Assembly: GCA_964291295.2 (NCBI GenBank)
Contig: OZ219754.1
Coordinates: 1,760,001 to 1,824,000 of the forward strand
Length of the DNA: 64,000 nt
Source: an uncultured Candidatus Binatia bacterium
GTDB lineage: Bacteria > Desulfobacterota > Binatia > UBA9968 > JAJDTQ01
Reading direction: 5' to 3'
The notes under the pieces are model-generated. The model had not been told where the DNA came from. It ran no database searches and saw only the letters and a list, made by a program, of their open reading frames with translations. Position 1 is the stretch's first letter; the number at the start of each line of letters is the position of its first letter. The position numbers were made by a program, and so were the translations under genes. Below, in pieces: positions 39,732 through 63,989 of this stretch.

Positions 39732-42700
39732 GTGCGCGCCTCCGCCAGAAGCCCACGACACCTGAGGGCGGGACTGCTCGCCGGCCTCTTCCTGCTCACG
39801 TTCGCCGCCGCCCTCGCGCCGCAGACGGCACAAGCACAGATCATTGATCTCACCGTAACGCCGGGCAACGGCAAGGTCGACCTGTCCTGGAGCTGGAGTG
39901 GCATTACCGGACAAATCAGGTGGCGGTACCACACATTCGGAGCTGCAACCAACAGCGCAACGGTTACGCCTTCCCCAGGGAAGCGAACTGGTACAGCGAC
40001 GATAACTGGTCTGACCAACGGCCAGATATATGATATCGAGATGCGCGCGAGTCGTCCTAGCGGGATTCATATTGGAACTTCCAACCGTGTCAGGGTGGTG
40101 CCGAACGACCTCGTCATCGTGTCCGCCACCGGGCTGGACAGCACAATACGGCTCAAATGGGACTATCAAGGTAGCCAAACCGGCAGTGGCTGGCAACATC
40201 AGACTTTTGAGGGAACAGGCGGCGGCCCATGGAAACAGCTGGCAGACTATTCTGCCGCCCGCGGGGCTGATATTCGAAATCTTGTTAACGGCAGAACCTA
40301 CAATATCGCTATTCGGTATCTGAGCGGCGGGGGCGGCTCCCACGCTGATTCCGTGCTCCACAACATTGGCTGGGTCAGCGCCACGCCGCGGGGGTCGACC
40401 CCGACGCTGGTTTCCGGCTCGAACGCCAGCGCCGCGGTCGAGTCGACCGGGGCGACGACGCTGGTGTGCTACAACCTTCTGGCGGCCTCGCAAGAAACCC
40501 CGCAAGGCTTGGTCAAGTATCTGGAGGCGCGCGCGGGCATGAGCGCCGTGCCTGCGCACAGCGTACTTGCCGATTCGAGTCTCGGCGTCGAGATCACCCA
40601 GGCCCCCGCCGGCATCACCAAGGGGCGCGGCGTCAACCTCAGTCCCTGCGTCAATCTCGGAGTGGGCGCGCATACCGTCACCTGGAGCTGGAAGGGCCGC
40701 GACGGCACTGCCGTGGCCGCCACGACCTCCACCACGATCACCGTGGCGGAGAGGGTCTCCAGTCCCAAGACGATCACGCTGTCGGCGTCCCCGTCGGCCA
40801 CGATCACCGAGGGCAACTCCGGTTCGACGGATGTCACCATCACCTTCACCCTCAGTGAGTCTGCGCCCGCGGGCTTCTCGGTTAGCTTGGGTTATCCCGC
40901 GGACATTGGCACAGCCACTGCCTCCGGCAAGGGATCTAACCCCTGCGATCCGCCTCTGCTTCCGAAGGGCACGGACGTGTGCCTCCCGGACGGCGTTATT
41001 GTCTCCATCGCCGAAGGCGAGACCCAGGGCACGAAGATCGTCCGCATACTCGGTGACACCCGGGAAGAACCGGACGAGACGATAAACCTCATCGGCTACC
41101 AGGACGACTGGGCCACCGGCAGGCTCACCCTGACCATCAGGGACGACGACGAGGGCGCCACCAAACCGGCCAGGCCGAGGGGCCTGTCGGCGGAAGCGGG
41201 CAATGCGCAGGTGGTGCTGACCTGGACCGATCCGGAGGACGATTCGATCACGGGGTATCAGGTGCAGAAGAAGAAGGGGAGCGCGGCCTGGGGCAGCTGG
41301 ACCGACCTCTCCGGTTCGGACGCGGACACCGTGATCCACACGGTGACGAGTCTGGACAACGACAGCGAATACCGCTTCCGCATCCGGGCGAAGAACGGTT
41401 CCGGCAACAGCGCCGCGTCGGCGGCGGTGAGCGCGACGCCGGCTGCCAATCCCAAGCCGTCCAAGCCGGTGCTGACGGCGGTGGCGGGTAACCGTTCGGT
41501 CACCCTGAGCTGGCCCGCCCAGACGAATATCGGGAATTGGGGTTACGAGTACAAGAGCGGGGCCGGCAGTTGGATCGCCAGGACGGTTTCGGACGGCAGC
41601 GCGACAAGCACGGTGGTGACGGGACTGACGGCCGGGACGGAATACACGTTCCGGCTGTTCGCCCGCCGCAGCAGCGGCGGGTCGTACCTTTCGTCGGTGT
41701 GGTCGGACCAGGTGACGGCGACGCCGTATGCCCTGTCGGCGCCGGTGCTGACAGGGGCCACATCGAATGTGGCCAGCTATAGTCTGGGGGTCCAACTGAC
41801 GTGGACCCATAGTGGTGACCTTCTCCCCAGTGGAGCCAGCTGGTTTCATTGGCAGATGGGTTATCGTCTCAAGGGGAGCACCACTTGGCAGGAAACCGCT
41901 CGCACGATCAGTTCGTCGGTACGTTCGGCGCGGACGGTTTCCTGGGAGGGAGGCGGCTACCCCGAGGGTGCGGTGGTGGAGGTGCGGGTCCGGGGACGGG
42001 GGTTGAATGATCAGACTGGCGTCTGGTCCAATATCCGCACGGTGACCCTCAGTGACGATGATGATGACAGGCCAGCCCTGACGTTCACCAGAGCGCCGGT
42101 GACGGTGGAGCCCGGGGCCGCCGCGACCTACACGGTGGCGTTGACGCAGGCGCATGCGGGCACACTGTCGATCGCGAGCGACGACACGGCCACGGCGACG
42201 GTGGACCCGGCGAGCCTGACCTTTACGGCGGTCAACTACAACACGGGTCAGACGGTGACGGTGACCGGGGTCGGCAACGGCACGGCGACGATCAACCACG
42301 CCTTCCGGCTGACGGGAGCTTCCGCGGATGCGATACCGGACGCGGGGACGGTGGACGTGACGGTGGCCGATACGCCGGGGGTGACGGTCTCGACGGCGGT
42401 GCTGACGGTGGTGGAGGGTGACTCCGGCACCTACACGTTGCGGCTGAACAAGGCGCCGTCGAGCGATGTGACGATAAGGGTGGACGGCGCTTCGGGGGAC
42501 GTGACGGTGGCGGGCGCGCCGCTGACCTTCACCACGTCCAACTGGAACAAGCCGCAGACGGTGACGGTGAACGCGGGGACGGACACGGACAATATCAGGG
42601 ATCCCGATGTGACGCTGACCCACAGCGCGGCGGGCGGCGGCTACGGTTCGGTGGGCATCGCCTCGGTGGTGGTGAGCGTGACGGAGAAGGATGTGGCGCC

Positions 42701-45065
42701 GGCGAAGCCGACGGGCCTGGCTGCGGCGGCGGGCGACGGTTCGGTGACGCTGAGCTGGACGGACGCGGGCAATCCGACCATCACGAAGTGGCAATACCGG
42801 CGGAAGGCCGGCGGCGGGGCTTGGGGCGATTGGAAGGACATTGGGGGCTCCGGAGCGATCACCACCAGCCACAAGTTGACCGGGCTGACCAACGGCACCG
42901 CGTATCAGTTCGAGGTGCGCGCGGTGAACGGTGCCGGCAACGGCGCCGGCCCGGATGCGCCGGTGAGCGCGACGCCGGCGGACGCCACGCTCCCGCCCGC
43001 GCCGCCCGCGGCGGGCGTGAGCGTGAGGGTGACGCCGACGGCGCTGACGGTGGAGGAGGGTGGCTCCGGGAGCTACACGGTGGTGCTGGGTGCGGAGCCC
43101 ACGGACACGGTGACGGTGACGGTGGGCGGGGCATCGGGGGAGGTGACGGCGTCGCCGCAGCGCCTGACCTTCACGGTTTCGAACTGGAGCGAGGCGCAGG
43201 GGGTGACGGTGAGCGCGGCTCGTGACGCGGACATGGCGGACGACAGGGCGACGCTGACGCACGGAGCGAGGGGCGGGGGCTATGAATCGGTGAGCATCGC
43301 CTCGGTGGCGGTGCGGGTGAGGGACACGACGCCGGTGCTGAGTCTGGAGACGGACCCGGCGGCGGTGGCCGAGGGGGAGAACATCCGCCTCACGGTGACC
43401 TCGGACCGTGCGCTGACGGGCAGTCTGACGGTGAGTCTGACGCTGGCGGCGCGCGACGGCGGCGGCTTCGATGGGGAGGACCTTCCGGGTGGGCTGGGGC
43501 CGCGTTCGTTGGATGTGGTGTTCGGCGCCACGGCGAGCCGGAGGGGTTTGGTGATGATACCCACCAGGGTGGATGGGGAGGCGGAAGGGAGGGAGTCGTA
43601 CCGCATCACGCTGAACGCGGCGCCGGGCTATGCGGTGGGGGTGGATGCGGTGGCGGAAGGAGTGCTGGAAGAGGGTTCGTCGTCGTCGGCGAACCGGGTG
43701 AACCGTGCGATCCTGCCGCATGTGGCGGCGCTGGCGCTGTCGCAGACGCTTGAGGCGGTGACGGGGCGGATCGAAGCGGTGTCGGATGGCGGTGCGGGTG
43801 GTACGGTGCGTTTTGGAGCGGCGCCGGGGATGGTGGTGGATGATGAGTGGGTTGGTCCGGGAGGTCGGGGGCAAGGGGGGCCGGGCTTGCGAGAGTTGCT
43901 GGACGGGGCCTCCTTCGCGCTGCCGCTGGGAGCTTCGGGGGCGGGAGGGGCGGCGGCGCCGGCGTTGTGGGGAGTGGGGGAGTGGCGGTCGCTGTCGGGT
44001 TCGGAGCGGGATCTTTCCTGGGACGGCGGGCTGTGGTCGGGGTATCTGGGGGCGGACGTGCGGGTTCGCCCGGACCTGTTGGCGGGGGCGGCGGTGTCGT
44101 ATGCGAAGGGCAAGGTGGATGCGGTGTCCCGGGGTGGTGATGGGACGAAAAGCAGGCACGAGAGCCGGGTGGTGTCGGTGAATCCGTATCTGGCGTGGCT
44201 GCGTGCGGACGGCACGACGCTGTGGGCGAGTGCGGGCTATGGGAGGGGCGAGGTGCGGATCACCGAGGCGGGAGCGGCGGCGCGCACGGCGGACCTGTCC
44301 CAGTGGAGTGGGGCGGCGGGCGGGCGCGGGGTGCTGTTGGAGGATCCGGAGCTCATCGCCGGGGGCACCACGCGAGTGGCGGTGAAGGGGGAGGGCTCCC
44401 TGGTCCAACTGGACACGGAGGCCGGCGACGGTCTGACCGAGTTGACGGTGAAGGCGAGCCGACTGCGGCTGATGCTGGAGGGGTCCTGGGAGCACCGGGT
44501 CGGGGGCGATGCGACGCTGACGCCGGCACTGGAAGTGGGCGTGCGTCATGACGACGGCGACGTTGGGCAGGGCGGCGGCGTGGAGGTGGGGGCCGGCGTG
44601 ACCTGGCGCGACCCGGGTGCCCGTCTGACCGCGGAGTTGCGGGCCCGGATGCTGGCGGTGCACGAGCGGGACCGGGAGGAATGGGGCGTGAGCGCCTTGG
44701 TGCGCCTTGACCCCGGGGCCGACGGGCGGGGGAGCTACCTGAGCTTCGGCCCGACCCACGGTCGCACGGCAAGCGGTCTGGGGCGGTTGTTCGACTACGG
44801 CTCGGCCATGGACAGCGGGGCGGGGGCGGGAGAGAGCCGCCTGGAGGCGGAGATGGGGCACGGCATCGGCATCGCCGGCCCGGCGCCGCTGGCGCTGCTG
44901 ACGCCTTATGCCGGGCTCAGCCTGGCGGAGTCGGGCGAGCGCACGCTGCGCCTGGGCGCACGCTACAGCCTGGGCCCGGGGGTCGCCCTGGGAATCGAGG
45001 GCACAAGCCGGCCCTGGACCAACGGCGAGCAGGGCCTCATGCTGCGCGGTGCGCTGCGCTGGTGA
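39732..45065 (+). CDS. Large FN3/Calx-beta-like repeat surface protein with C-terminal autotransporter-type beta-barrel (adhesin 1); true start probably 39602 across the poly-C tract
   Basis: Signal peptide ending AQA-Q; multiple FN3 repeats (LxW...GLTNGxxYxFxxRA); TITEG..PDET modules; amphipathic barrel strands; terminal ..LRW. Confidence 0.85.
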   Translation: MRASARSPRHLRAGLLAGLFLLTFAAALAPQTAQAQIIDLTVTPGNGKVDLSWSWSGITGQIRWRYHTFGAATNSATVTPSPGKRTGTATITGLTNGQIYDIEMRASRPSGIHIGTSNRVRVVPNDLVIVSATGLDSTIRLKWDYQGSQTGSGWQHQTFEGTGGGPWKQLADYSAARGADIRNLVNGRTYNIAIRYLSGGGGSHADSVLHNIGWVSATPRGSTPTLVSGSNASAAVESTGATTLVCYNLLAASQETPQGLVKYLEARAGMSAVPAHSVLADSSLGVEITQAPAGITKGRGVNLSPCVNLGVGAHTVTWSWKGRDGTAVAATTSTTITVAERVSSPKTITLSASPSATITEGNSGSTDVTITFTLSESAPAGFSVSLGYPADIGTATASGKGSNPCDPPLLPKGTDVCLPDGVIVSIAEGETQGTKIVRILGDTREEPDETINLIGYQDDWATGRLTLTIRDDDEGATKPARPRGLSAEAGNAQVVLTWTDPEDDSITGYQVQKKKGSAAWGSWTDLSGSDADTVIHTVTSLDNDSEYRFRIRAKNGSGNSAASAAVSATPAANPKPSKPVLTAVAGNRSVTLSWPAQTNIGNWGYEYKSGAGSWIARTVSDGSATSTVVTGLTAGTEYTFRLFARRSSGGSYLSSVWSDQVTATPYALSAPVLTGATSNVASYSLGVQLTWTHSGDLLPSGASWFHWQMGYRLKGSTTWQETARTISSSVRSARTVSWEGGGYPEGAVVEVRVRGRGLNDQTGVWSNIRTVTLSDDDDDRPALTFTRAPVTVEPGAAATYTVALTQAHAGTLSIASDDTATATVDPASLTFTAVNYNTGQTVTVTGVGNGTATINHAFRLTGASADAIPDAGTVDVTVADTPGVTVSTAVLTVVEGDSGTYTLRLNKAPSSDVTIRVDGASGDVTVAGAPLTFTTSNWNKPQTVTVNAGTDTDNIRDPDVTLTHSAAGGGYGSVGIASVVVSVTEKDVAPAKPTGLAAAAGDGSVTLSWTDAGNPTITKWQYRRKAGGGAWGDWKDIGGSGAITTSHKLTGLTNGTAYQFEVRAVNGAGNGAGPDAPVSATPADATLPPAPPAAGVSVRVTPTALTVEEGGSGSYTVVLGAEPTDTVTVTVGGASGEVTASPQRLTFTVSNWSEAQGVTVSAARDADMADDRATLTHGARGGGYESVSIASVAVRVRDTTPVLSLETDPAAVAEGENIRLTVTSDRALTGSLTVSLTLAARDGGGFDGEDLPGGLGPRSLDVVFGATASRRGLVMIPTRVDGEAEGRESYRITLNAAPGYAVGVDAVAEGVLEEGSSSSANRVNRAILPHVAALALSQTLEAVTGRIEAVSDGGAGGTVRFGAAPGMVVDDEWVGPGGRGQGGPGLRELLDGASFALPLGASGAGGAAAPALWGVGEWRSLSGSERDLSWDGGLWSGYLGADVRVRPDLLAGAAVSYAKGKVDAVSRGGDGTKSRHESRVVSVNPYLAWLRADGTTLWASAGYGRGEVRITEAGAAARTADLSQWSGAAGGRGVLLEDPELIAGGTTRVAVKGEGSLVQLDTEAGDGLTELTVKASRLRLMLEGSWEHRVGGDATLTPALEVGVRHDDGDVGQGGGVEVGAGVTWRDPGARLTAELRARMLAVHERDREEWGVSALVRLDPGADGRGSYLSFGPTHGRTASGLGRLFDYGSAMDSGAGAGESRLEAEMGHGIGIAGPAPLALLTPYAGLSLAESGERTLRLGARYSLGPGVALGIEGTSRPWTNGEQGLMLRGALRW

Positions 45066-45387
45066 GGAGAACGCCGGGGCAGGAAATGAACGGAGGCCGC
45101 CGCTCGGCTGGCCGATGCCCTCCACCTGTAGTCGTGAGGGAACGGGCTTTGTTCACTATCGGGTGCGGACGCTGAAACCGTGACTCCGCCCACCACCCGA
45201 GCCAGCGGTCCGGGTGCCGGCTCTTGAAAGCGCCCGCCGATGCACCCCGAAAGCTTGGTGGCATCGGCGGTGGCGCGATGCGCAGAGAAATGTGGAACGC
45301 CGCGCCAAGGAAAGCCATAACGGCGCGGCAGGGAACCCCTCGCAACCCGCTGATTCCATTGATTCACCCCGGCGAATCCGGGATGGT

Positions 45388-45584
45388 TCAGACTCTCCCT
45401 TCCAGGTCATTGATCCGATCGAAAACTTCGTCAAGATCCGCCGCGAGGCTGTCTATCCGACTGGAAAACCGCCGGGAAACGTAAATTCCGACCAGGGTTA
45501 TAGCCACTGGAATGGCGACGGCGACGATCCCGATCAGCAGCGACAGGCCTTGCAGTACAACGCAACAGGAACGCCTTCACACAT
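45388..45584 (-). pseudogene. Possible small membrane/coiled-coil protein (frameshifted or with a non-canonical start)
   Basis: Minus-strand frame LQGLSLLIGIVAVAIPVAITLVGIYVSRRFSSRIDSLAADLDEVFDRINDLEGRV*; the nearest ATG (45584) is out of frame. Confidence 0.35.
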
Positions 45585-45591
45585 GGTCCGG

Positions 45592-45807
45592 TCACCGGCG
45601 CCGGGTAGGACGGCCCTTCGCAGCCTGTTCGCGTTCCCATTCGAGGGCGGCCGCCTTGGTCGTCGCGTACCCGACCTTCACGATATGACCGTCATCGCCA
45701 AAGTCCTTCTTGTGCTCGGTTTCCCGACGCTCAAGATCATTGGTGATGCCGGTGTGAACGATTCTGTGGCCCTGTTTGAAGTGATACTTGTAGGTGTCGC
45801 GCGCCAT
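45592..45807 (-). CDS. Minimal GIY-YIG-like nuclease
   Basis: RBS AGGAGG; YKY...VHTGITNDLERRETEH...ALEWE pattern. Confidence 0.7.
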   Translation of the reverse strand: MARDTYKYHFKQGHRIVHTGITNDLERRETEHKKDFGDDGHIVKVGYATTKAAALEWEREQAAKGRPTRRR

Positions 45808-46087
45808 GATCCGTGCCTCCTTGCGATTATTCCGGTTTCCAGAAGATCATCCCCGTGGTGGCCGGCAGAACGCTGATCCACAATCCGGACCCTTCGTAAA
45901 GCCTGCCTTTGCTTGGGGAGTCATCTTGACAGACGAGTCGAACCAGCTTTTCTCCTTCTGAAAAAGCCTGACCGCTCCGGAGACGGAGGCAGGCGGCTGC
46001 AATCAGGTTCAAAAGTTTCTTTGAGGCCTTCGAGGTCGATGGATCAATCAAGGATCCGGGCGGCGTCAATGCCCGGCGAGGGTCACG

Positions 46088-47035
46088 TCAGCCGCCGCTC
46101 TCCAGTTCCGCCAGGTAACGCTCGGCGTCGATGGCGGCCATGCAGCCGGTTCCGGCGGCGGTGACGGCCTGGCGGTAGACGCGGTCCTGGACGTCGCCGC
46201 AGGCGAATACGCCCTCCAGCGTGGTCCGGGTGCCGTCGTGGGTCTTGATGTAGCCCAGTTCGTCCATTTCCAGAACGCCCTCGAAGAGTTGCGAGTTGGG
46301 CTGGTGCCCGATGGCGATGAAGACGCCGTCGCAGGCGAAGGTACGGTCCGCGCCGGTTCGGACGTCCCGCAGCGTGACGCCGGTGACGCCGCCGTCCTGC
46401 GGATCGCCGTGGATGTCCGCCACCGTGGTGTTCCAGATGAAGTCGATCCCGGGGTTGGCCCGGGCGCGATCCTGCATGATTCCGGAGGCCCGGAGCTGGT
46501 CGCGGCGGTGCACGACGAAAACCTTGCTGGCGAAGCGGGTGAGGAACGTGGCCTCTTCCATGGCGGTGTCTCCGCCGCCCACCACGATGACCTTCTTGTC
46601 CTTGAAGAAAAAGCCGTCGCAGGTGGCGCAGGCGGAGACCCCGTGTCCCATCAGCCTGTTTTCGGCGTCCAGCCCCAGCAGCTTGGCGGTGGCGCCGGTG
46701 GCGATGATCAGGGCGTCGCAGGTGTAGCGGTCGCTGCCCGCCCGCAGCGCCATGGGCCGGCTTCCGAGTTCCACGGCGGCAACATCCCCGAAGACGATCC
46801 GGGTGCCGAAGCGTTCCGCCTGCCTGCGGAACTGCACCATCATGTCCGGCCCGAGAATGCCGTCCGGGAAGCCGGGGTAGTTCTCGACGTCGGTGGTAAT
46901 GGTGAGCTGGCCCCCGGGCTGGGAACCCTCCACCACCAGCGGTCCGAGGTTGGCGCGGGCCGTGTAGAGGGCGGCGGTGAGGCCCGCCGCTCCCGAACCG
47001 AGGATGACGACGCGGTAATGAGTCTGCTCTGCCAT
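46088..47035 (-). CDS. trxB: Thioredoxin reductase
   Basis: [22 protein letters not shown] and YRQAVTAAG motifs. Confidence 0.96.
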
Positions 47036-47149
47036 GGTTTCATTCATACCATACGGGCCGCTTCGCTTGTAGGTCGGCCAGGCTGCGGCGGCTTGCATTC
47101 GCGGTGCCGGAAGATACACTGAGCGCCGGACGCTCGGGGAGGATACAGG

Positions 47150-47635
47150 ATGGCGACATTGTCCCATGTCGATGAACAGGGGCGGGTGAGGATGGTGGAT
47201 GTCACCGGCAAGGAGGTGACCCGGCGGGTTGCGGTGGCCGGAGGCGTGGTGACCATGCGCCCGGAGACCTTGGCCGCCATTGCCGGGGGGCGGATTCCCA
47301 AGGGCGATGTGCTGGCGGTGGCGCGCATCGCCGGGATCATGGCCGCCAAGAAGACGTCCGAGCTCATACCGCTGTGTCACCCGCTGCCCATCAGCAGCGT
47401 GGAGGTCACGCTCACCCCGCGGCAGGAGCCGCCGTCGGTGGAGATCGAGGCCGCCGTGCGCATCCAGGGCCGCACCGGCGTGGAGATGGAGGCGCTTACC
47501 GCGGTGGCGGTGGCGGGTCTCACCCTCTACGACATGTGCAAGGCCGTGGACCGGGAGATTGCCGTCGGCGAGATTCGCCTTCTGCGCAAGAGCGGAGGCA
47601 AAAGCGGTCCATTCGAGAGAAGGCCGGCCGACTGA
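47150..47635 (+). CDS. moaC: Cyclic pyranopterin monophosphate synthase
   Basis: [20 protein letters not shown] and YDMCKA motifs. Confidence 0.96.
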
Positions 47636-47707
47636 CCGGCGGGTCTCCCGGCGGCGCGGGCTAAAGTCTCTCCAGGCCGTGCCGACTGTATACCCGGGAA
47701 CCTGTCC

Positions 47708-48412
47708 ATGTCATCGTCCGCGCTCATGACGACACCCATCAACCAGTGGCCGATGGAAGACCGCCCGCGGGAGAAGCTTCTCGATCGGGGGGCGGAACAG
47801 CTGACGGAAACCGAGTTGCTGGCGATCCTGCTGGGCACGGGAAGCGCCGGCGCGCATCAGAGCGCGCTGGATCATGCGCGCGCGCTGATGGTGCGGTTCG
47901 GCGGGCTGAGGGGCATCGACGACGCCTCCGTCGCCGAGTTGACCGGGCTCAAGGGGCTGGGTGAGGCCAAGGCCGCCCGCCTCAAGGCCTGTCTGGAGCT
48001 CGGCCGCCGCCGCGAGGACCTCCGGTGCGAGGCGGGTCAGTTGATGAGTTCGCCGGAGGAGGTGTTCCGGCATTTCCGGCCCCGCTGCATCAACGCCAAG
48101 CGCGAGGCGTTCTACGTTGTCTTGCTGACCAATCGGAATCGGAAGATCCGGGACGTCAAGATCTCCGAGGGGTCTCTCACGGCCTCTGTCGTCCACCCGC
48201 GGGAGGTGTTCAACCCGGTCATCCGGGAGTCCGCGGCCGGGGTCATCTTCGTCCACAACCATCCCAGCGGCGACCCTTCCCCCAGCCGCGAGGACGTGGA
48301 GATTACCCGCCGTCTGAGACAGGTGGGCGAGGTACTGGGGGTGCGGGTCCACGACCATGTGGTGGTGGGGCACGACCGGTTCTTCAGCTTCAACCGGGAG
48401 GGAATGCTGTGA
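47708..48412 (+). CDS. radC: RadC/JAB-domain protein
   Basis: [24 protein letters not shown] and DH motifs. Confidence 0.93.
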
Positions 48413-52466: not shown

Positions 52467-52475
52467 GGATACACG

Positions 52476-53549: not shown

Positions 53550-53558
53550 CGCGCCGCT

Positions 53559-54842: not shown

Positions 54843-54863
54843 TCCTTCGATTCGCCCGGGCGG

Positions 54864-56159
54864 CTAACCGGCCCGTTCCAGGCTCGCCGGGTGCCGGGGC
54901 CGCCGTATCGTGAGCGTCAACGCGGATGAAGCCAGCAGCATGGCGATGAACAGGTAGAACGAGATCCTGTACGATCCGGTGTAGTCATTCACGAAGCCGA
55001 AGAACGGTGGACCGCAGACGCCGCACAACAGCACGATCTGCAGGGCGGCGCCGCGAACCGTACCCAGCGACACCCGGCCGAAGTAGTTCGCCCACATGAC
55101 CTCCTCCAGCACCTGGGCGCCGCCAAGCCCCAGGCCGTAGAAGAAAAACCCGAGGTAGATGGTCGAGAGGTCCTGTGCGGTCGCCGCCACGTACAGCCCG
55201 GCGGCCTCCATCAGAAACAGGAACGCGATGATCCTGCGGACGCGGAAGCGCTCGCCGACGAAGCCCCACAGCAGGCCCGAGGCGGTTTGCGTGCCGGCGA
55301 TCACGGTCATGGTCAGGGCCGCCGGGAACCCGCCGTATCCCAGGTCCGAGACGTAGGAGACGACGTGGAGGTTGAGGCCGGTGATGCCCACGTCCACCAT
55401 GCCGAACACCAGGATGATGAGCCAGAAGGTGGGGGTGCGCCGCACATCCCGCCGCGTCCAGTGAACGTCCGGCTCCGGCGCCCGCGCCCGGGCATGGACG
55501 GTGCCCTTCATGGGTTCGCGTTGGGCGGCGCCGTCGGGATGAAGCCCCATGTCCTCCGGGCTCCGGCGCATGAAGAGGGCCACCGGGATGACGGCGAGCA
55601 CCACCACCAGCACGCCGAACAGGGTCCACACCTGGCGCCAGGCGATGAATGTCAGCAGCCAGCCCACCACCGCGGAGATGGCCACCTTGGCGACGCCATG
55701 TCCCAGGTGGGAAAGGGCCAGCGCCCTCCCCCGCATCCGGACGAACCACCGGGCCACCGTGACGTTCACCACGAAGTAGCAGACCAGGGCGTGGCCGGCC
55801 GCCATCACGGTCATGCGCACGGAGGCGAACTGCCAGAAGTGGGACACCTGACCCAGCACCAGGAACCCGACGGCCGAGAGGGCTGCTCCGGTGACCATCA
55901 TGCGGCGCGGACCGTATTGGTCCAACTTCGATCCCACCCAGGGTGCCATCAGGGCGTAAAGGAGGTGCTCGCCCGACCGCAGCAGCGAGAAAAGCCCCCG
56001 GGACACGCCAAGATCGGCGGTGACGGGCTTCAGAAAGACGCTGAGTGTACTGGACAGGAAGAAGGCGCACGAGATGTTGGCCAGGAAGGCGGCGCCCACG
56101 ATGTACCAACCGTAGAACACGCGCGACCGTCCGGAGCGGTGGAGGGGATCAGAAATCAC
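54864..56159 (-). CDS. MFS transporter (tandem paralog)
   Basis: FYGWYIV, DQYGPR and RWFVRMRGRA motifs. Confidence 0.9.
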   Translation of the reverse strand: MISDPLHRSGRSRVFYGWYIVGAAFLANISCAFFLSSTLSVFLKPVTADLGVSRGLFSLLRSGEHLLYALMAPWVGSKLDQYGPRRMMVTGAALSAVGFLVLGQVSHFWQFASVRMTVMAAGHALVCYFVVNVTVARWFVRMRGRALALSHLGHGVAKVAISAVVGWLLTFIAWRQVWTLFGVLVVVLAVIPVALFMRRSPEDMGLHPDGAAQREPMKGTVHARARAPEPDVHWTRRDVRRTPTFWLIILVFGMVDVGITGLNLHVVSYVSDLGYGGFPAALTMTVIAGTQTASGLLWGFVGERFRVRRIIAFLFLMEAAGLYVAATAQDLSTIYLGFFFYGLGLGGAQVLEEVMWANYFGRVSLGTVRGAALQIVLLCGVCGPPFFGFVNDYTGSYRISFYLFIAMLLASSALTLTIRRPRHPASLERAG

Positions 56160-56397
56160 GGCGGTGCGGGAATCCGGGGCAATTCTGGCTCAGGTTGCAC
56201 TCTTGCGCGAACGGGCTGTGGCAAGCAGGAACCCGGGACCCGGTTCATTCGGGGAAACGTAGGCAATCGCGTCGTCGGAGTCAAACTTTGTCCGGCGTTT
56301 GTTCGGCGGCCGCCGCGGTGATGGCGGTTCGGTCGGCATGACGCCGAGCGGGTTGCCAGAACCATCCCGCGCCGGGGAATGGCGGAAGAACCAGGGT

Positions 56398-56570
56398 ATG
56401 GACGTTTCTCGCTTCGTCAGCCGGCACGCCCGCGCTGATCGAGACCCCCGTCACCGCCCGCACATGACCCCGCCGCCACCCGCCGCCCTTGCGCTCGGTC
56501 TGCGCCGTCAACCATCGAAGTCTCCTGGACAGACGCCCGCTGTTTCTGCCGCCAATCCCCCGCGTGGGAC
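56398..56570 (+). repeat. Conserved upstream element of adhesin locus 2 (homologous to 39284-39468)
   Basis: Colinear shared blocks with locus 1. Confidence 0.8.
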
Positions 56571-56603
56571 AGCCCCGGGATAGCCGCCCGGGCTGTCCCA
56601 CGC
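56562..56603. other. Strong hairpin at the 3' end of the upstream element
   Basis: GCGTGGGACAGCCC(C)GGG ... CCCGGGCTGTCCCACGC. Confidence 0.7.
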
Positions 56604-56619
56604 TGCGTGTCGGGTGCGT

Positions 56620-58210
56620 GGGGGAGAGATTGGGGTGTCAGGCAGTGGCGTTCTTGCGCTATGGCAGATAGCGCGGTGGCAGATAGACATGGGGGGATGT
56701 GGGAACGCATCCGCAAGGGGTCGGGCGCGGTCCACGGTGAGGCACCGGAAGGGTATGCGCTGTGGGAGGTGGGGGAGGGTCGGGTGAAGCCGGAGGAGCG
56801 TTCCCGGAGGAGCGTCCGGACCGGGACGTGCTGATGGACAGGCATCCTTGTCCGGGCTTTCGCGGTCTGGCAGGCCGCGGCCTTCGTCATGCGGCGACCT
56901 TCAGAGGTCGATGGCCGGGCTTGGCGGCGTGGCAGAACGGCGCCTTCAAGTGCCGACCGCGGGACCGTTGGACCGGCGGACGGTCGAAGCAGCCGTTCGA
57001 GCGTCCGGGTCGGATCGCCGACCACACGCGCCTTCTGCTGCTCTCCGAGCCCGGAGTGTTTCCCAACCTTGCCTCCCGTTTCGTGGCGCGCATGACCCGC
57101 TGGCGGGCGGTGCACGGCCATCCGGTGCTTGTGGCCGAGACATTCCACGATTCGGGGTTTTCCGGGGTTGTTTGCGGGCACGCTTTACAAGGCGGCGGGC
57201 CGGGCAGGACCCGTGGGTTAGCGCGCGCCAACGGGCGTTGCACCGACCCCCACGGTTGGCGGAAGGAGACAGGGGTCAAGCCGCTGCGGCCCGACGCCCG
57301 GGCGCGGCTGTCGAACCCGCGTCCGCTGCCGCCCCACGTGGCGCCTCCGGTCGATCCCGGCCTGGCTTCCCGCCACCCGGTGGCGATGCGTTCCCAGTAT
57401 GCCGAACGGGCGGTCGTGCCGGACTTCCGCCGGAACCAGGGCCGGAAGCCCGGGGTGGCCTGCGTGCTCGCCGTGCATGTGCGGTGCCGACGACCTCTTC
57501 CGGGTCAAGGCCAACGCGCCGGACACCTTCCATCTTCTCGCCCGCATTGACTGGGAGAAAGACGCCACCGGCCACTTCGAGGAGGAACTCGACAAGCTCC
57601 CCGGTGGTCCGGAGCCGCGCTCCATCCGCGTCCCGCCCCCGCGCCGGGTCCACTACCCCGGCGTCCGCCAGATCACCCGCCACCGTGAGCCCCTGCGCGA
57701 GGACGGGGACAGGGCCGGGGAAGAACACATGGAAACCGCCCATGTCCTCACCTCCCTTGATGCCGCAGCGGCATCTCCGAGAGACCGGCTCCGGCTCAAT
57801 CGCGGACACGGGGTCGTGGAGAACCGCAACCAGCGCCGGAGGGACTGCGTCTTCGGCGAGGACGCATGCCTGACCGGCATCGGACACGGACCGGCCAACC
57901 GCGCCCGCCTTGACCGCATCGCACTCGCGGTGATCTTCACCAACCGGCGCGACACCGAGAGCTTCACCGAAACCCGCCGACGGCTGCAACTCGACCGGGG
58001 CCAAGCCTTCGCCGCCCTGACCCGGCCACCGACGTCCCGGAACCCCAGCCCCAACCACCCCCGCAGGCCACCCCACCGCCAGGCCCATCCCCGGCTCACC
58101 CGGCCCGGCGCTTATCCCCGGACAGTACCCCTGCACCGACAACCGCATGAAAGGCACCCTACCCCCCTCTGCCCCACTCTCATCCCAACCCCCAGCTTCG
58201 GAAAGTCCTG
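56620..58210 (+). mobile_element. Degenerate ISAs1-family element with an N-terminal DUF4338 (DruA-like) domain; transposase is a pseudogene
   Basis: AFKCRPRDRW, PNLASR, HGHPVLVAETF (DUF4338); PDFRRNQGRK, ADDLFRVKAN, NRGHGVVENRNQRRRDCVFGEDAC (ISAs1 DDE) in shifting frames; right end GGAAAGTCCTG; left boundary uncertain. Confidence 0.8.
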
Positions 58211-58432
58211 GTGTCGGGCGCGGCGCACGTTGAAATCGGCCTGCGGATGGGTTACAGGTTGCACCGATGGGTTTGCTGCGGTCGTGCGGGTTCGGCGCCC
58301 CGATATTCGACAGGAATTCAGGACGGGAGGATGAGATCATGACGGGGACGCCGGGCGATGTCGGGATGCATGACCTGCGGCTGTCCGGGCGGGGCATGAG
58401 CGCCTCACGCGCGCGCGAACCCGAACTCGTTG

Positions 58433-58449
58433 CCCCCCCCCCCCCCCCC
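58433..58449 (+). repeat. Poly-C tract (C17) between the upstream ATG (58339) and the adhesin ORF; putative phase-variation switch
   Basis: 17 consecutive C. ATG 58339 is out of frame with ORF 58461, and C18 or C15 would fuse them without a stop. Confidence 0.9.
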
Positions 58450-58460
58450 GAAAACCGGCT

Positions 58461-61400
58461 GTGGGGCTTAGTCCGGTGGGCGCCCTCGGGAGAACCGCCA
58501 GCCGCCTGAAGGCGGCATTCGCCCTCGTCTTCTTCGCGCTGGTGACGCTCGCCGTGCTCGCGCCGCAGGACGCGCGGGCGCAGCAAAAGCCGGCGCTCAC
58601 GGCAACCCCGGGTGTCGGCAGTGTCACGCTCAACTGGACCCGTACCGGCAACACTGGATTTGGATATTGGGTTTACCGACAGGGGGTCACCGGAGGAGGT
58701 TACGGCGACTGGATCGATATACCGGGCGGCGCCACCATCAGAACCCACACGGTCACAGGGTTGACCCCCGGCACCTCCTATACCTTCCAGGTGGCAAGGG
58801 CGGAAGGTACCGGTCTCAACTTTTCCGTCTTCGCTAGTGGGGGAGGGTACTCGAACGGGGCCACGGCGACGCCAACGGCGGCCACTTCCACCAAGACGAT
58901 CACCCTGTCGGCGACATCGACCTCGATCACCGAGGGCAACTCCGGCTTTACGGACGTGACGGTCACCGTGACGCTCGGCGAGGCGGCGCCGGCGGCGGAT
59001 CCGGATTTGGGGATTTTTTCGCTCTCCCTTATTTCTGCCAGTCCCCCCGGCACGGCCACAGGCTCCAGCAAGGGAGCAAACCCCTGCACGGCGCCGCTGA
59101 ATCCGGCGGACACCGACTGGTGCCATCCGGACGGGGCCAACATCTCCATCGCCGAAGGTGAGACCATGGGCACGAAGAAAGTGCGTATTCTCGCCGACAC
59201 CCGGGACGAGCCGAACGAGACCATCAAGCTCGTTTCTTCGGCTGCGCATCCTGGCTGGACCGACGGCAGCCTCACCCTGACCATTACCGACGACGATCCC
59301 CCCACCACGGCCGTTCCTGCCGCGACAGCGGGACTGGGTTCGGATGCAGGGGATCGGAAGGTGACGCTCATATGGGAGGCTGTCAGGGATTCCAATCCGG
59401 CCATTACCAAGTGGCAGTATCAGCAGAAGACCGGGTTGGCGGCCTACGGCGCATGGACCGATATTTCCAACTCGGCGGAAGGTGAACCCAATAACGGCAG
59501 ATATGTGGTGACGGGTTTGAGCAACGGGACGGAATACAAGTTCAAGGTGCGTGCGGTGAACAGTTCCGGCAACGGTGTGGTATCCAATGAGACAACGGCA
59601 ACCCCCACTGGCAGCAAGACCATCACCCTCACAACCGATCAGCCCAATAACCGTATCACGGAGGGTGATACGGAAAGGAAGAACATAGTCCTCACCGTTA
59701 CCCTCAGCGAGGATGCACCGGACGAGTTTCTTGTCAGCATCAGCTATGGTGGGGGTATCGGCACCCTGGTGGGCAATGATAACGGAGGTTCCGACAACTG
59801 CAGCAATCCGACCCCCGCGACAGCAGATATCTGCTTCCCCGGCGGCCCTTCCGCGAGTAGCCTCCCCATAGAGTCTGGGCAAAGAACAGCCACAAGGACG
59901 GTTGGCATTCTTCCGGACACCTTGGAGGAGGGGGATGAGTACTTCTCCATGCGGGCCAGCACCAGCACAGGGGGCTGGTCGGGCGACTCCATCCTCATCA
60001 CCATTGTTGACAATGATGGCACCACCGCCAAACCCGCCAAGCCCACGGGGTTGTCGGCGGAGGCGGGCAACGGTCAGGTGGAGCTGACGTGGACGGACCC
60101 GGAGGACGATTCGATCACGGGGTATCAGGTGCAGCAGAGGAAGGGGAGCGCCGCCTGGGGCAGCTGGACCGACATTTCCGGTTCGGACGCGGACACCACG
60201 AACCACACGGTGACGGGTCTGGACAACGACAGCGCGTACCGTTTTCGCATCCGGGCGCAGAACGGCGGCGGCAACAGCGCCGCGTCGGCGGTGGTGCGGG
60301 CGACGCCGGCGGAGCCCGCTACGGCCCCCGCCAAGCCGACGGGCTTGGGCGCGACGAAGGGCGACACGTGGGTCTACCTGACGTGGACCGATCCGGGCGA
60401 CGCCAGCATCACCCGTTGGGAGTACCGGCAGAAGGCCGGTACCGGAAACTACGGTTCGTGGATGCGGATGACGGGTTCCGGCGCGGCGACGGTGAAGCAC
60501 CAGATCCCGGGCCTGAAGAACGGCACGGTCTACGCGTTCAGGATTCGCGCGGTGAACGGCAACGGCAACGGCGCGGCGTCGGAGGAGGTGACGGCGACGC
60601 CGAATCCGCCGGTGGCGCCGGTGTTGACGGCAGCCACTTCAACGACCAATCGGAATCTCACGCTGACCTGGACCCATGCCGGCTCGACCGCGGTCGATTA
60701 CATCGACGGCGGGGGTGCCAGCGCCGTCTGGTGGCAAACGGGGCATCGGCTGAAGGGGTCCACCACCTGGACGGCGTACGGCGGGAACGTATCCGCCGCG
60801 AGGGGCAACTCCCGGCGCACCTCGTCGGCGCTCCTCGGCTCCGCTGCTGCCTACCCGAACGGAGCATCGGTGGAGGTGGCGATTCGGGCATCGGGCGATT
60901 CCTTATTGCTGGGCAGGTCGGATGTCAAGGGCCCCTGGTCGAACGAGCGCACGGTCACGTTCATGAACACCGATACGAACGCGCTGACGATCACCGGAGC
61001 GCCGGTGACGGTGGCGCCCGGTTCCACGGCGGTCTACAGGGTGGCGCTGACGAAGGCGTATGCGGGGACGCTGTCGGTCAAGAGCGACGACACGGACACG
61101 GCGACGGTGAGTCCGCCGAATCTGACGTTTACCGCGGACAACTACAGCACGGCGCAGGATGTGACGGTGACCGGGGTCAAGAACGGCACGGCGACCATCA
61201 ACCACGCCTTTCGGCTGACGGGGGCCACGGTGGATGCGATACCGGATGCGGGCACGGTGGACGTGACGGTGGCGGATGCGCCGGGGGTGACGGTGTCGAC
61301 GGCGGCGCTGACGGTGGCGGAGGGCGGCAGCGGCGCCTACACGATGCGGCTGAACACGGCGCCGTCGAGCGATGTGACGATAATGGTGGACGGCGCTTCG

Positions 61401-63989
61401 GGCGACGTGACGGTGGCGAATGCGACGCTGACCTTCACCACGGTCAACTGGAACATGCCGCAGACGGTGACGGTGAACGCGGGGACGGACACGGACACGA
61501 CGCCGGACGCCGCCGTGACGCTGACCCACAGCGCCTCGGGGGGCGGCTACGCTTCGGTGAGCATCGCCTCGGTGGTGGTGAGCGTGACGGAGAGCGGCGT
61601 GGTGCCGGCGAAGCCGACGGGCCTGGCGGCGGCGGCGGGGGACGGTTCGGTGACGCTGAGCTGGACGGACGCGGGCAATCCGACCATCACGAAGTGGCAA
61701 TACCGGCGGAAGGCCGGTGGCGGGGCCTGGGGCGATTGGACGGACATCGGGGGCTCCGGAGCGAGCACCACAAGCTACGAGGTGAGCGGGCTGACCAACG
61801 GCACCGCGTATCAGTTCGAGGTGCGCGCGGTGAACGGTGCCGGCAACGGCGCTGGCCCGGATGCGCCGGTGAGCGCGACGCCGACGGGCGCCACGCCGCC
61901 ATCCACGCCTCCCGGGACAACGCCGACGCCGCCTGCGGCGGTCGGGAGCGGGAGCGTGCGGGTGACGCCGGCGGCGCTGACGGTGGAGGAGGGCGGCACC
62001 GGGAGTTACACGGTGGTGCTGGGTGCGGAGCCCGCGGGGACGGTGACGGTGACGGTGGGCGGGGCATCGGGGGAGGTGACGGCGGTGCCGCGGCGCCTGA
62101 GCTTCACGGTGTCGAACTGGAGCGAGCCGCAGCGGGTGACGGTGAGCGCGGCTCGTGACGCGGACACGGCGGACGACAGGGCGACGCTGACGCACGGAGC
62201 GAGGGGCGGGGGCTATGATTCGGTGAGCATCGCCTCGGTGGTGGTGCGGGTGAGGGACACGACGCCGGTGCTGAGTCTGGAGACGGACCCGGCGGCGGTG
62301 AGCGAGGGGGAGGACATCCGCCTTGTGGTGACCTCGGACCGTGCGCTGACGGGCAATCTGACGGTGAGCCTGACGCTGGCGGCGCGCGACGGCAGCGGCT
62401 TCGATGCGGAGGACCTTCCGGGGGGACTGGGGCCGCGTTCGTTGGATGCGGTGTTCGGCGCCACGGCGAGCCGGAGGGGAGTGGTGATGATCCCCACCCG
62501 CACGGATGGAGAGGTGGAAGGCCGGGAGTCGTACGGCATCAGGCTGAACGCGGCGGAGGGCTATGCGGTGGGGGTGGATGCGGAGGCGGAGGGAGTTCTG
62601 GAAGAGGGTTCGTCGGAGGGGGCGGATCGGGTGAACCGTGCGATCCTGCCGCAGGTGGCGGCGATGGCGCTGTCGCAGACGCTGGAGGCGGTGACGAGGC
62701 GGATCGAAGCGGTGTCGGATGGCGGTGTGGGCGGTGCGGTGCGTTTTGGAGCGGCGCCGGGGAAGGCGGTGGAGGAGGAGTGGGTTGGCTTGGGAGACCC
62801 GGGGCAACAGGGACCGGGCTTGCGGGAGATGCTGGACGGGGCCTCCTTCGCGCTGCCGCTGGGTGCTTCGGGGGCGGGAGGGGCGGCGGTGCCGGCGTTG
62901 TGGGGAGTGGGCGAGTGGCGGTCGCTGTCGGGTTCGGAGCGGGATCTTTCCTGGGAGGGCGGGCTGTGGTCGGGGTATCTGGGGGCGGACGTTCGGGTTC
63001 GCCCGGACCTGCTGGCGGGGGCGGCGGTGTCGTATGCGAAGGGCAAGGTGGATGCGGTGTCGAAGAGGGGCGACCGGACGAAAAGCAGGCACGAGAGCCG
63101 GGTGGTGTCGGTGAATCCGTATCTGGCGTGGCTGCGTGCGGACGGCACGACGCTGTGGGCCAGCGCGGGTTACGGGAGGGGCGAGGTGCGGATCGCCGAG
63201 GCGGGAGCGGCGGCGCGCACGGCGGACCTGTCGCAATGGAGTGGGGCCGCGGGCGGGCGCGGGGTTCTGATGGAGGATACGGAGATCATTGCCGGGGGCA
63301 CCACGCGAGTGGCGGTGAAGGGGGAGGGCTCCCTGGTCCAACTGGGCACGGAGGCCGGCGACGGTCTGACGGAGTTGACGGTGAAGGCGAGCCGACTGCG
63401 GCTGATGCTGGAGGGGTCGTGGGAGCACCGGGTCGGGGGCGATGCGACGCTGACGCCGGCACTGGAAGTGGGCGTGCGTCATGACGACGGCGACGTTGGG
63501 CAGGGCGGCGGGGTGGAGGTGGGGGCCGGCGTGATCTGGCGCGACCCGGGTGCCCGTCTGACCGCGGAGTTGCGGGCCCGGATGCTGGCGGTGCACGAGC
63601 GGGACCGGAAGGAATGGGGCGTGAGCGCCCTGGTGATCCTGGACCCCGGGGCGGACGGTCGGGGGAGCTATCTGAGCTTCGGCCCGGCCCACGGTCGCAC
63701 GGAAAGCGGTGTGGGGGGGTTGTTCGACTACGGTCCGGCCACGGACAGCGGGGCGGGGGCGGAGGAGAGCCGTCTGGAGGCGGAGCTGGGGCACGGCATC
63801 GGCATCGCCGGCCCGGCGCTGCTGACGCCTTATGCCGGGCTCAGCCTGGCGGAGTCGGGCGAGCGCACGCTGCGCCTGGGTGCGCGCTACCGCTTGGGGT
63901 CGGGGGTCGCCCTGGGAATCGAGGGCACAAGCCGGCCCTGGACCAACGGCGAGCAGAGCCTCATGCTGCGCGGTGCGCTGCGCTGGTGA
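58461..63989 (+). CDS. Large FN3/Calx-beta-like repeat surface protein with C-terminal autotransporter-type beta-barrel (adhesin 2); true start probably 58339 across the poly-C tract
   Basis: Signal peptide ending ARA-Q; FN3 repeats; two TITEG modules; C-terminal ~1000 aa nearly identical to adhesin 1; terminal ..LRW. Confidence 0.85.
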   Translation: MGLSPVGALGRTASRLKAAFALVFFALVTLAVLAPQDARAQQKPALTATPGVGSVTLNWTRTGNTGFGYWVYRQGVTGGGYGDWIDIPGGATIRTHTVTGLTPGTSYTFQVARAEGTGLNFSVFASGGGYSNGATATPTAATSTKTITLSATSTSITEGNSGFTDVTVTVTLGEAAPAADPDLGIFSLSLISASPPGTATGSSKGANPCTAPLNPADTDWCHPDGANISIAEGETMGTKKVRILADTRDEPNETIKLVSSAAHPGWTDGSLTLTITDDDPPTTAVPAATAGLGSDAGDRKVTLIWEAVRDSNPAITKWQYQQKTGLAAYGAWTDISNSAEGEPNNGRYVVTGLSNGTEYKFKVRAVNSSGNGVVSNETTATPTGSKTITLTTDQPNNRITEGDTERKNIVLTVTLSEDAPDEFLVSISYGGGIGTLVGNDNGGSDNCSNPTPATADICFPGGPSASSLPIESGQRTATRTVGILPDTLEEGDEYFSMRASTSTGGWSGDSILITIVDNDGTTAKPAKPTGLSAEAGNGQVELTWTDPEDDSITGYQVQQRKGSAAWGSWTDISGSDADTTNHTVTGLDNDSAYRFRIRAQNGGGNSAASAVVRATPAEPATAPAKPTGLGATKGDTWVYLTWTDPGDASITRWEYRQKAGTGNYGSWMRMTGSGAATVKHQIPGLKNGTVYAFRIRAVNGNGNGAASEEVTATPNPPVAPVLTAATSTTNRNLTLTWTHAGSTAVDYIDGGGASAVWWQTGHRLKGSTTWTAYGGNVSAARGNSRRTSSALLGSAAAYPNGASVEVAIRASGDSLLLGRSDVKGPWSNERTVTFMNTDTNALTITGAPVTVAPGSTAVYRVALTKAYAGTLSVKSDDTDTATVSPPNLTFTADNYSTAQDVTVTGVKNGTATINHAFRLTGATVDAIPDAGTVDVTVADAPGVTVSTAALTVAEGGSGAYTMRLNTAPSSDVTIMVDGASGDVTVANATLTFTTVNWNMPQTVTVNAGTDTDTTPDAAVTLTHSASGGGYASVSIASVVVSVTESGVVPAKPTGLAAAAGDGSVTLSWTDAGNPTITKWQYRRKAGGGAWGDWTDIGGSGASTTSYEVSGLTNGTAYQFEVRAVNGAGNGAGPDAPVSATPTGATPPSTPPGTTPTPPAAVGSGSVRVTPAALTVEEGGTGSYTVVLGAEPAGTVTVTVGGASGEVTAVPRRLSFTVSNWSEPQRVTVSAARDADTADDRATLTHGARGGGYDSVSIASVVVRVRDTTPVLSLETDPAAVSEGEDIRLVVTSDRALTGNLTVSLTLAARDGSGFDAEDLPGGLGPRSLDAVFGATASRRGVVMIPTRTDGEVEGRESYGIRLNAAEGYAVGVDAEAEGVLEEGSSEGADRVNRAILPQVAAMALSQTLEAVTRRIEAVSDGGVGGAVRFGAAPGKAVEEEWVGLGDPGQQGPGLREMLDGASFALPLGASGAGGAAVPALWGVGEWRSLSGSERDLSWEGGLWSGYLGADVRVRPDLLAGAAVSYAKGKVDAVSKRGDRTKSRHESRVVSVNPYLAWLRADGTTLWASAGYGRGEVRIAEAGAAARTADLSQWSGAAGGRGVLMEDTEIIAGGTTRVAVKGEGSLVQLGTEAGDGLTELTVKASRLRLMLEGSWEHRVGGDATLTPALEVGVRHDDGDVGQGGGVEVGAGVIWRDPGARLTAELRARMLAVHERDRKEWGVSALVILDPGADGRGSYLSFGPAHGRTESGVGGLFDYGPATDSGAGAEESRLEAELGHGIGIAGPALLTPYAGLSLAESGERTLRLGARYRLGSGVALGIEGTSRPWTNGEQSLMLRGALRW

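Follow-up and report, generated by a model that had tools for sequence, protein, structure and literature searches.

A dispersed family of modular autotransporter genes with block-exchanged modules and poly-C leader cassettes in an uncultured Binatia bacterium

A 64,000-nucleotide stretch of contig OZ219754.1 from an uncultured Candidatus Binatia bacterium (the window, to which all positions without a contig prefix refer) carries two long genes, here termed A and B. We conclude that these genes probably belong to a dispersed family of modular autotransporter adhesins that is mosaic through block exchange and in which each copy has a poly-C cassette that would switch the reading frame. Gene B is a chimera, its 5' part being of the type of the paralog P580 and its 3' part of the type of the paralogs P3349 and P3066. 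An earlier reading of the window, made from its letters alone (the sequence-only reading), had proposed a repertoire diversified by module swapping or gene conversion. The mosaic gene B and its conflicting module trees support that structure and mode of evolution; the accompanying label of an undescribed system is too strong, because dispersed recombining surface families with a leader repeat switch are already known.

Chimeric gene B and the constant 3' half

The two genes and the segments compared are the following.

39732–45065, + strand: gene A, an open reading frame (ORF) of 1777 aa with signal peptide, six variable modules, constant stalk, linker helix and barrel
58461–63989, + strand: gene B, 1842 aa counted from the first GTG
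58450–60312, + strand: 5' block of B, P580 type (compared with P580 at C1:586115-584250)
60033–63989, + strand: 3' block of B, P3349/P3066 type by sequence identity
60033–60312, + strand: FN3 hinge in B, the overlap of the two parental blocks
41158–41443, + strand: FN3 hinge, copy in A, about 88–89% identical to four paralogs
42075–45065, + strand: constant 3' block of A (FN3x-Big-LapA-like-FN3-LapA-like-Calx-like-linker-barrel)
43629–45062, + strand: linker helix and beta-barrel translocator of A (PF03797, AlphaFold2 (AF2) model, VIA-align)

The 5' block of B is 99.5% identical to P580 (6 mismatches in 1866 nt), and further 3' the identity falls to 95.7% (129 in 3009; Fisher p = 1e-20). The 3' block of B is 98.7% identical to P3349 (42 mismatches in 3966) and 98.3% identical to P3066. 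The P580-type and P3349-type blocks overlap in the conserved FN3, and the recombination junction is therefore placed there. Phylogenetic analysis agreed with this partition: the 5' 480 nt grouped B with P580 (support 100/99) and rejected its grouping with P3349/P3066 (approximately unbiased (AU) test, p = 0.005), and the 3' 3 kb grouped B with P3349/P3066 and rejected P580 (AU p = 0.028). The module trees thus conflict for B; congruent trees were the outcome that the sequence-only reading had said would speak against it.

The proteins of A and B share 1082 of 1470 aligned residues (74%, BLASTP); the start of B that is homologous to the other copies is the GTG at 58476. Their 3' blocks (42075–45065 and 60981–63989) are 90.8% identical over 3018 nt, with 241 mismatches, and the internal FN3 (41158–41443 and 60025–60310) is 87.8% identical over 286 nt. 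Both shared segments had been located correctly from the letters alone, and in both cases "near-identical" overstated the likeness. The 3' blocks differ at about 9% of positions, and their being one sequence collapsed in assembly is therefore ruled out.

A second signal was found between A and the paralog P2906. Within the constant block, the first half shows 157 mismatches in 1470 nt and the second half only 13 in 1540 (Fisher p = 7e-36), with 99–100% nucleotide identity from 43600 on; the same halves of A and B differ by 144 and 104 mismatches. A topological conflict was considered for this pair and dropped, as the unrooted split was identical in both halves by the AU test. With the split unchanged and divergence down 17-fold, the evidence here is a local collapse of divergence and not a change of topology. 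A patch of 99.6% identity between P580 and P3066 points to what may be another recombination event.

Module composition was assessed with profiles made from gene A's own segments and then run over the paralogs. The six close paralogs share a single constant 3' half, of the order listed above for A, and fall into three types by their 5' halves: FN3-FN3-unique-CalxT-FN3-FN3 in A and P2906; FN3-CalxT-FN3-CalxT-FN3-FN3(-FN3) in B and P580, with B itself ending in FN3-FN3; and FN3-LapA-like-Calx-FN3-FN3-FN3 in P3066 and P3349. The number and order of distal modules therefore differ between A and B, as had been proposed, and the homologous "TITEG" modules were recovered once in A and twice in B. FN3 is strongly supported by Pfam in both proteins (E = 5.6e-32 and 6.5e-45). 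Pfam support for Calx-beta in A is weak (E = 0.18), and PF03160 is recorded for one paralog and for relatives. The unique modules are AT-richer, as the sequence-only reading had noted, with a GC content of 0.56–0.60 at 39800–40400 and 0.58–0.59 at 59300–59900 against 0.70–0.75 in the 3' block.

The C-terminal 478 aa of A, scanned alone, passed the Pfam Autotransporter family PF03797 (40.1 bits against a cut-off of 26, E = 4.5e-10, residues 115–322); a scan of the whole protein at E 0.01 did not list it. An AF2 model of this C-terminal part from a 15-row alignment (predicted local distance difference test (pLDDT) 74, predicted TM-score (pTM) 0.71) contains a 36-residue helix at residues 17–52 followed by strands. 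The top five VIA-align matches of this model are all type Va translocators, namely EstA, AIDA-I, NalP, Hbp and AaaA (Z 15.6–16.8; NalP 1uyo, Z 16.1 over 244 residues), and the EstA, AIDA-I, NalP and Hbp alignments begin at model residues 10–19, that is, from the helix onward. VDAC follows closely (Z 15.2), and other barrels are near too. DSSP assigns about 18 long strands to model residues 112–477; the Va barrels match only to about residue 386, and pLDDT drops after residue 340. A Foldseek search of the PDB placed TonB-dependent receptors on top at TM-scores of only 0.25–0.43 and was set aside as uninformative, and a profile search of PDB sequences gave no matches.

At the other end of the proteins, the translations read by eye show a basic n-region, a hydrophobic core and AQA or ARA followed by Q. 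Protein A ends in LRGALRW, and the last residue is W in the translations of both A and B. Taken together, PF03797, the modelled helix and barrel, the Va matches and the C-terminal W identify A and B as paralogous genes for predicted type V autotransporters. In the proposed architecture, the chain would begin with a Sec signal peptide and continue as a rod built of FN3, Ig-like and Calx-beta-like modules, with the linker helix and outer-membrane barrel anchoring and exporting the rod. Gene conversion would keep the 3' stalk and barrel alike within the genome, and the 5' modules would be swapped as blocks between paralogs via the conserved FN3 homology patch.

Three further features lie between or beside the two genes.

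46088–47380, − strand: trxB-like gene, between A and B
47150–47635, + strand: moaC, between A and B
56590–58340, + strand: repeated unit of 1.75 kb ahead of gene B; contains a degraded piece of an ISAs1-type transposase gene at about 57582–57935

The A and B repeat copies are 18.87–18.92 kb apart with trxB and moaC inside, in agreement with the interval of about 18.9 kb first described. The 1.75-kb unit is 92–93% identical to DNA upstream of P3066 and P3349 and recurs beside other tract genes. Its transposase piece matches NCBIfam NF033564 at E = 1.3e-5 and 24.6 bits, under the cut-off of 70, and a Pfam scan of the piece gave no match. An adjacent pair of major facilitator superfamily (MFS) transporter genes at 53559–56159 on the − strand, 72–73% identical at the DNA level, constitutes a tandem duplication.

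Leader, poly-C tract and reading frame

The cassettes at the heads of the two genes are laid out as follows.

39602–39668, + strand: leader of A, its ATG preceded by GGAAGGGTGAGG, 22 codons into the tract
39669–39691, + strand: poly-C tract of A (C23)
58339–58432, + strand: leader of B, its ATG preceded by GGGAGGATGAG, 31 codons into the tract
58433–58449, + strand: poly-C tract of B (C17)

Each tract stands downstream of a leader with a Shine–Dalgarno (SD) sequence and ATGACG (ATG at 39602 and 58339) and upstream of the GTG and signal peptide, so that the tracts and common leader described by the sequence-only reading are present on both genes. C23 and C17 are the sole long C runs near A and B. 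At C23 the leader ORF of A is off frame and stops at the TGA at 39725–39727, 4 nt before the GTG at 39732; frame arithmetic brings it into frame with the main ORF at C22 or C25. At C17 the leader ORF of B is likewise off frame and stops at the TGA at 58507–58509, within the main ORF; a tract of C15 or C18 would bring it into frame.

Related cassettes were collected in a scan of one genome per species, which gave 223 related stretches, of which 55 loci were kept, all of them records of metagenome-assembled genomes (MAGs). In 40 of the 55 loci, from MAGs of at least four phyla, the gene strand carries a run of C9–C27 no more than 300 nt ahead of the match. Of the other 15, five have a long G/C run farther upstream or on the other strand, one has an internal run only and nine have none. 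Across taxonomic labels, and even in genomes of 51% GC, the nucleotide sequence between tract and signal peptide is conserved; the upstream leaders are of several types.

Tract length varies even where the surroundings do not. Four pairs of paralogous or duplicated copies match at 99% or more in both 150-nt flanks; tract length is unequal in three of them (15/14, 21/24 and 16/17) and equal in the fourth (13/13). In four more pairs only the downstream flank reaches 97% identity, and there the tract always differs, by as much as 14 nt (19/17, 22/12, 19/11 and 13/27). As far as can be judged from assembled copies, these pairs indicate that the tracts mutate more quickly than the DNA on either side.

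Early stops in both off-frames indirectly support ribosomes crossing the tract. Among 42 distinct cassettes, 81% have no off-frame run longer than 19 codons beyond the tract; at positions drawn at random from these genes the proportion is 7.6%. Different copies preserve the stops in different ways. In one frame, most have a TGA right before the GTG, and B has a TAG one codon further on. In the other frame, the codon following a conserved Leu always starts with A and so keeps a TGA, while the residue it encodes varies (K, S, R or T).

Each tract-led copy carries a portable 5' cassette consisting, in order, of an SD and start codon, a short leader ORF, a poly-C run (C9–C27), a short spacer, a conserved SD-like stretch with GTG, and the signal peptide. 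Slipped-strand mispairing would alter the C count. Translation from the leader ATG would run in frame into the signal peptide in one length class of three (ON), and the other lengths would reach one of the two conserved early stops and leave the gene OFF, or low through re-initiation at the GTG. If each copy flipped independently, cells would show different subsets of the family. We infer translation of the leader, control of expression by the length of the tract, combinatorial expression of the copies, binding of the proteins to host or matrix, and a role in attachment or antigenic variation. Among the readings of the tract, a translational frame switch ranks first, a three-level variant based on an upstream ORF (uORF) second, and an effect at the level of DNA or the 5' untranslated region (5'-UTR) third.

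In the uORF variant, which we judge unlikely but deserving of serious weight, translation of the main ORF begins in every case at its own GTG and the tract sets only where the leader uORF ends. Three graded levels would result, with no clean on/off state: an end 4 nt before the GTG with coupled re-initiation, an end about 30–45 nt past the GTG with the start occluded, or in-frame reading. The two window genes presently illustrate the first two positions, one conserved stop lying 4 nt before the GTG (A now) and the other inside the start of the ORF (B now). The variant would also account for a leader poorly constrained in sequence and length and for the conserved start by the SD-like stretch, which changes from GTG to ATG in 3 of 40 loci. 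Yet the internal SD (GGGG) is weaker than the GGAGGA of the leader, and the hidden stops are predicted by a fusion of leader and gene as well.

A tract acting on DNA or mRNA, through promoter spacing, 5'-UTR structure or termination with the leader ORF untranslated, would recall the Bordetella fim promoters; we hold this to be improbable. Loci L023 and L046 fit it, with an AT-rich promoter-like TTGACA...CATAAT directly upstream of the tract and an ATG without SD, as do upstream flanks of several unrelated types. However, a scan for sigma-70-like promoters around both window tracts found no sites, tracts as long as 27 nt are too long for any promoter spacer, and most copies have a strong SD and ATG 67–96 nt upstream. 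Stops kept in both off-frames would also go unexplained if ribosomes never crossed the tract.

The frame switch, which remains our preferred reading, has a number of observations to contend with. The start codon (GTG mostly, ATG in L016, L043 and L044) and an SD-like GGGG or GAGG are conserved just before the signal peptide, and translation of the gene might for that reason be independent of tract length. The leader is in frame in 6 of 33 scorable related loci, with 12 and 15 in the other frames, which is no departure from chance. By eye, the leader peptides show no third-position bias, with changes at all three positions, and indel lengths in the leader are in some cases not divisible by three; in L023 and L046, both of low GC, the leader has just 5 codons and no SD. 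The cassettes are homologous, so that the hidden-stop statistic measures conservation and does not count independent cases. Four full barrel paralogs in the genome (2780220, 251453, 186276 and 234778) have no tract. The ON/OFF calls depend on the assembled lengths of long homopolymers, which may be off by one; sequencing-run contigs break at the tract, and the one X2 contig that crosses it, with five fewer letters, is too weak to count. The adhesin function, finally, is suggested by domain types.

Several other observations concern the tract region. In runs X2 and X3, the summed contig depth in the poly-C bin (39652–39695) is thousands-fold above its flanks, from which it follows that many other X2 and X3 contigs contain long C runs. 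An RNA hairpin around the SD and GTG was considered and dropped: RNAalifold on 27 cassettes gave −8.75 kcal/mol with compensatory changes in 2 of 13 pairs, and a GGGCGC/GCGCCC stem proposed by eye is broken, without compensation, in several copies. An exact 23-nt cassette motif had one match in metagenome_contigs, without a tract and in a different context, which we ascribe to chance, and none in viral_contigs.

The genome searched comprises 3.70 Mb in three contigs, of which contig C1 has 66% GC. Barrel matches number 14 at E 1e-20 or better, fragments counted. The cassette of leader, poly-C and signal peptide heads nine genes: A, B and those at C1:5012, 586116, 697078, 896843, 2911885, 3071512 and 3343886. 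The paralog count suggested by the sequence-only reading thus bears out a tract-led family, although not for the four tract-less barrel paralogs given above. At C1:696744-697220, a full leader and C16 cassette (tract 697078) is followed by just 111 codons and represents what is left of a family member. Distant barrels, 32% identical to that of A, close two giant ORFs (C1:2348994-2381378, and C1:3617677 to the contig end plus C1:1-5030), each exceeding 10,000 codons. One is headed by a C21 tract; the other, if read on through the contig ends, is probably headed by the G19 tract at 5012, but the joined reading has a stop at the junction.

The run-length spectrum of C1 sets long tracts apart. C1 has 35 G/C runs of 12 or more, and against first-order Markov simulations the spectrum is bimodal: runs of 7–9 (136 observed, 1444 expected) and of 10–12 (3 observed, 45 expected) are depleted 10- to 15-fold, and runs of at least 13 (34 observed, 1.4 expected) are enriched 24-fold. 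Such a spectrum would be expected from selection on tracts, with short runs purged and the 34 long ones kept.

Long tracts also accompany other gene classes. Five paralogous TbpB-type lipoprotein genes (C1:351886, 874052, 1555359, 2270508 and 2799053) carry C16–C22 right after the lipobox cysteine, and the TbpB-type beta-barrel domain PF01298 was found at E = 4e-18 in the one lipoprotein scanned. Six tracts (C1:502203, 667172, 699787, 1209581, 1268213 and 2138419) are intergenic and upstream of large RTX-repeat proteins, of which the one scanned has 22 stretches of PF00353; the gene on the opposite side of these tracts is related to the unit that precedes gene B. Long G/C tracts also lie in or at the start of DNA methylase, Mrr/ResIII restriction and DUF1156 genes (C1:43450, 605882, 737307, 829088 and 485035), which are candidates for phase-variable restriction-modification. 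A mix of lipoprotein, RTX and restriction-modification genes is the usual phase-variable gene set of host-adapted bacteria, and the source bacteria are probably host-associated.

Relatives in other genomes and the position of gene A

Of 8000 candidates scored in a database search with the barrel, 363 proteins reached E 0.001 or better, and many contigs encoded several. The 55 loci retained in the one-genome-per-species scan carry the following labels.

Alphaproteobacteria: 24 loci
Gammaproteobacteria: 15 loci
Thermodesulfobacteriota: 6 loci
Vicinamibacteria: 4 loci
Thermoanaerobaculia: 2 loci
"Porisulfidus": 2 loci
Longimicrobiia: 1 locus
Acidimicrobiia: 1 locus

Passenger and barrel differ in where their closest relatives are found. 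One segment of A is involved.

39719–43276, + strand: passenger part of A nearest to another phylum's MAG, 83.7% identical over 3581 nt to L001

L001 is a MAG record labelled Pseudohongiella (Gammaproteobacteria), and its match to the A passenger is better than that of any paralog in the source genome; 40000–40299 has no match in its own genome and is 87% identical to L001. Parts of the 5' half of B are 90–96% identical to loci labelled Alphaproteobacteria, Pseudohongiella and Vicinamibacteria. The barrel is 88–100% identical within the genome and at most 80% identical to any other genome compared. Over longer times, 5' blocks would also be exchanged between different phyla that apparently share a habitat.

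Extra long C runs occur beside the matched gene at L036:1468 (C33) and L045:1373 (C29) and near the 3' flanks in L004, L008, L012, L014 and L015, which suggests that neighbouring genes in those genomes may be led by tracts as well.

A more prosaic account would make these ordinary duplicated adhesins, the tracts neutral slippage-prone poly-proline codons or homopolymer errors, and the likeness across phyla a product of misbinned or chimeric MAG contigs. All data are indeed assemblies of uncultured organisms, long homopolymers are error-prone on every platform, and the frame states look random. Nonetheless, we consider this account very improbable: the tract stands at a homologous site in 40 of 55 loci on independent multi-megabase contigs, identities between genomes are 84–96% and not 100%, and length differences of 3–14 nt exceed the usual consensus error. 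The bimodal run lengths and the conflicting module trees also argue against it.

A broader proposal is held more tentatively, as a real possibility somewhat short of probable. Under a cross-phylum pool of adhesin parts, the switch cassette and FN3/Calx-like modules would move among co-resident symbionts of at least four phyla and recombine onto the homogenised barrel of each genome. Unrelated bacteria living in the same host would thereby have access to one common repertoire of attachment proteins, expressed stochastically, and the cassette would amount to a regulatory device that spreads horizontally and not to a lineage trait.

Comparison with the same genus bears on how A came to its present place.

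38769–46087, no strand assigned: segment of 7.3 kb with gene A, not found between hisF and the trxB-like gene in same-genus genomes

In all five same-genus loci examined (L067–L071), the match runs up to 38768 and resumes, 75–155 nt on, from 46088. Since hisF adjoins the trxB-like gene in all five of these genomes, 38769–46087 is an insertion in the source lineage; no target-site duplication was found at its ends. Neither the insertion nor the spread of cassette and modules across phyla was accessible to the sequence-only reading. The right part of the insertion (45066–46087) is richer in AT, with a GC content of 0.60, and contains a 220-aa ORF at 45214–45876, for which Pfam and NCBIfam gave no match. 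The best barrel match in each of the 12 same-genus genomes searched reaches only 37–44% protein identity, and records labelled Alphaproteobacteria reach 61–66%. Long C runs are patchy in the genus: roughly half of the 12 genomes have many and the others hardly any, the quality of the assemblies being uneven.

Relation to known switching surface-protein families

On/off switching by repeats and recombining surface-protein families are textbook subjects for a few cultured mucosal pathogens, and the same logic appears here in uncultured high-GC bacteria. Three features stand out: a shaped homopolymer spectrum, a cassette conserved at the nucleotide level across phyla, and passenger modules that resemble those of other phyla more than those of paralogs in the same genome. 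Provided that the switch operates as proposed, it would offer a handle on how symbionts vary their surface towards host or phages, and an example of a regulatory element that spreads horizontally with its cargo. There is also a warning for annotation, in that such genes will receive wrong starts or be called frameshifted pseudogenes.

FN3- and cadherin-type eukaryotic-like proteins are described as enriched in sponge symbionts and are thought to mediate host interaction (parts of PMC11706023, PMC9531527 and PMC13747020). The family would resemble them as FN3-rich secreted proteins, the likeness being that of the FN3 domain, and one relative is labelled with a genus name that also occurs in a sponge genome note; those reports, in the same parts, concern domain enrichment and escape from phagocytosis. 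A literature search on sponges or symbionts with phase variation, homopolymers or autotransporters turned up no such system, supplements lying outside the search. Bordetella pertussis shares a high-GC genome with poly-C/G tracts at surface-protein genes, autotransporters included; its fim tracts, in contrast, lie in promoters, and the portions of PMC1891110 consulted describe no portable leader cassette or spread across phyla.

A dispersed, recombining surface-protein family with a leader repeat switch is, by analogy, of a known kind, represented by Opa, Bab/Hop and the meningococcal autotransporters. Neisseria Opa proteins are encoded by about a dozen dispersed paralogs, each with a leader-peptide repeat that shifts the frame independently, and recombination between loci makes mosaics. 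The family described here would follow that logic in its dispersed paralogs, individual leader repeats and mosaics, with no homology claimed. Opa genes, however, use CTCTT pentamers and encode a small 8-stranded barrel with variable loops, whereas here a C9–C27 homopolymer precedes the signal peptide of modular autotransporters of 1,100 to more than 10,000 aa, and no sequence relation is claimed.

In Helicobacter pylori, babA/babB and other Hop genes are adhesin paralogs that combine a conserved 3' half, encoding the barrel, with a variable 5' half; gene conversion among them produces chimeras, and their 5' region carries a repeat switch. The likeness, again one of logic only, extends to the constant 3' barrel half, the variable 5' half, the chimeras and the 5' repeat. 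Theirs are CT dinucleotide repeats with another barrel family in one species, whereas here modules and cassette appear to cross phyla.

The meningococcal type Va autotransporters NalP, MspA, AutA and AutB are phase-variable. They share with A and B a type Va translocator and poly-C in the 5' coding region. Unlike A and B, each is encoded by a single-copy gene, the passenger is a protease or a beta-helix, and the tract measures about 8–14 nt (comparison drawn from part of PMC5084427); the genes here form a family, with FN3/Calx-like rods and a longer predicted barrel of about 18 strands in the model.

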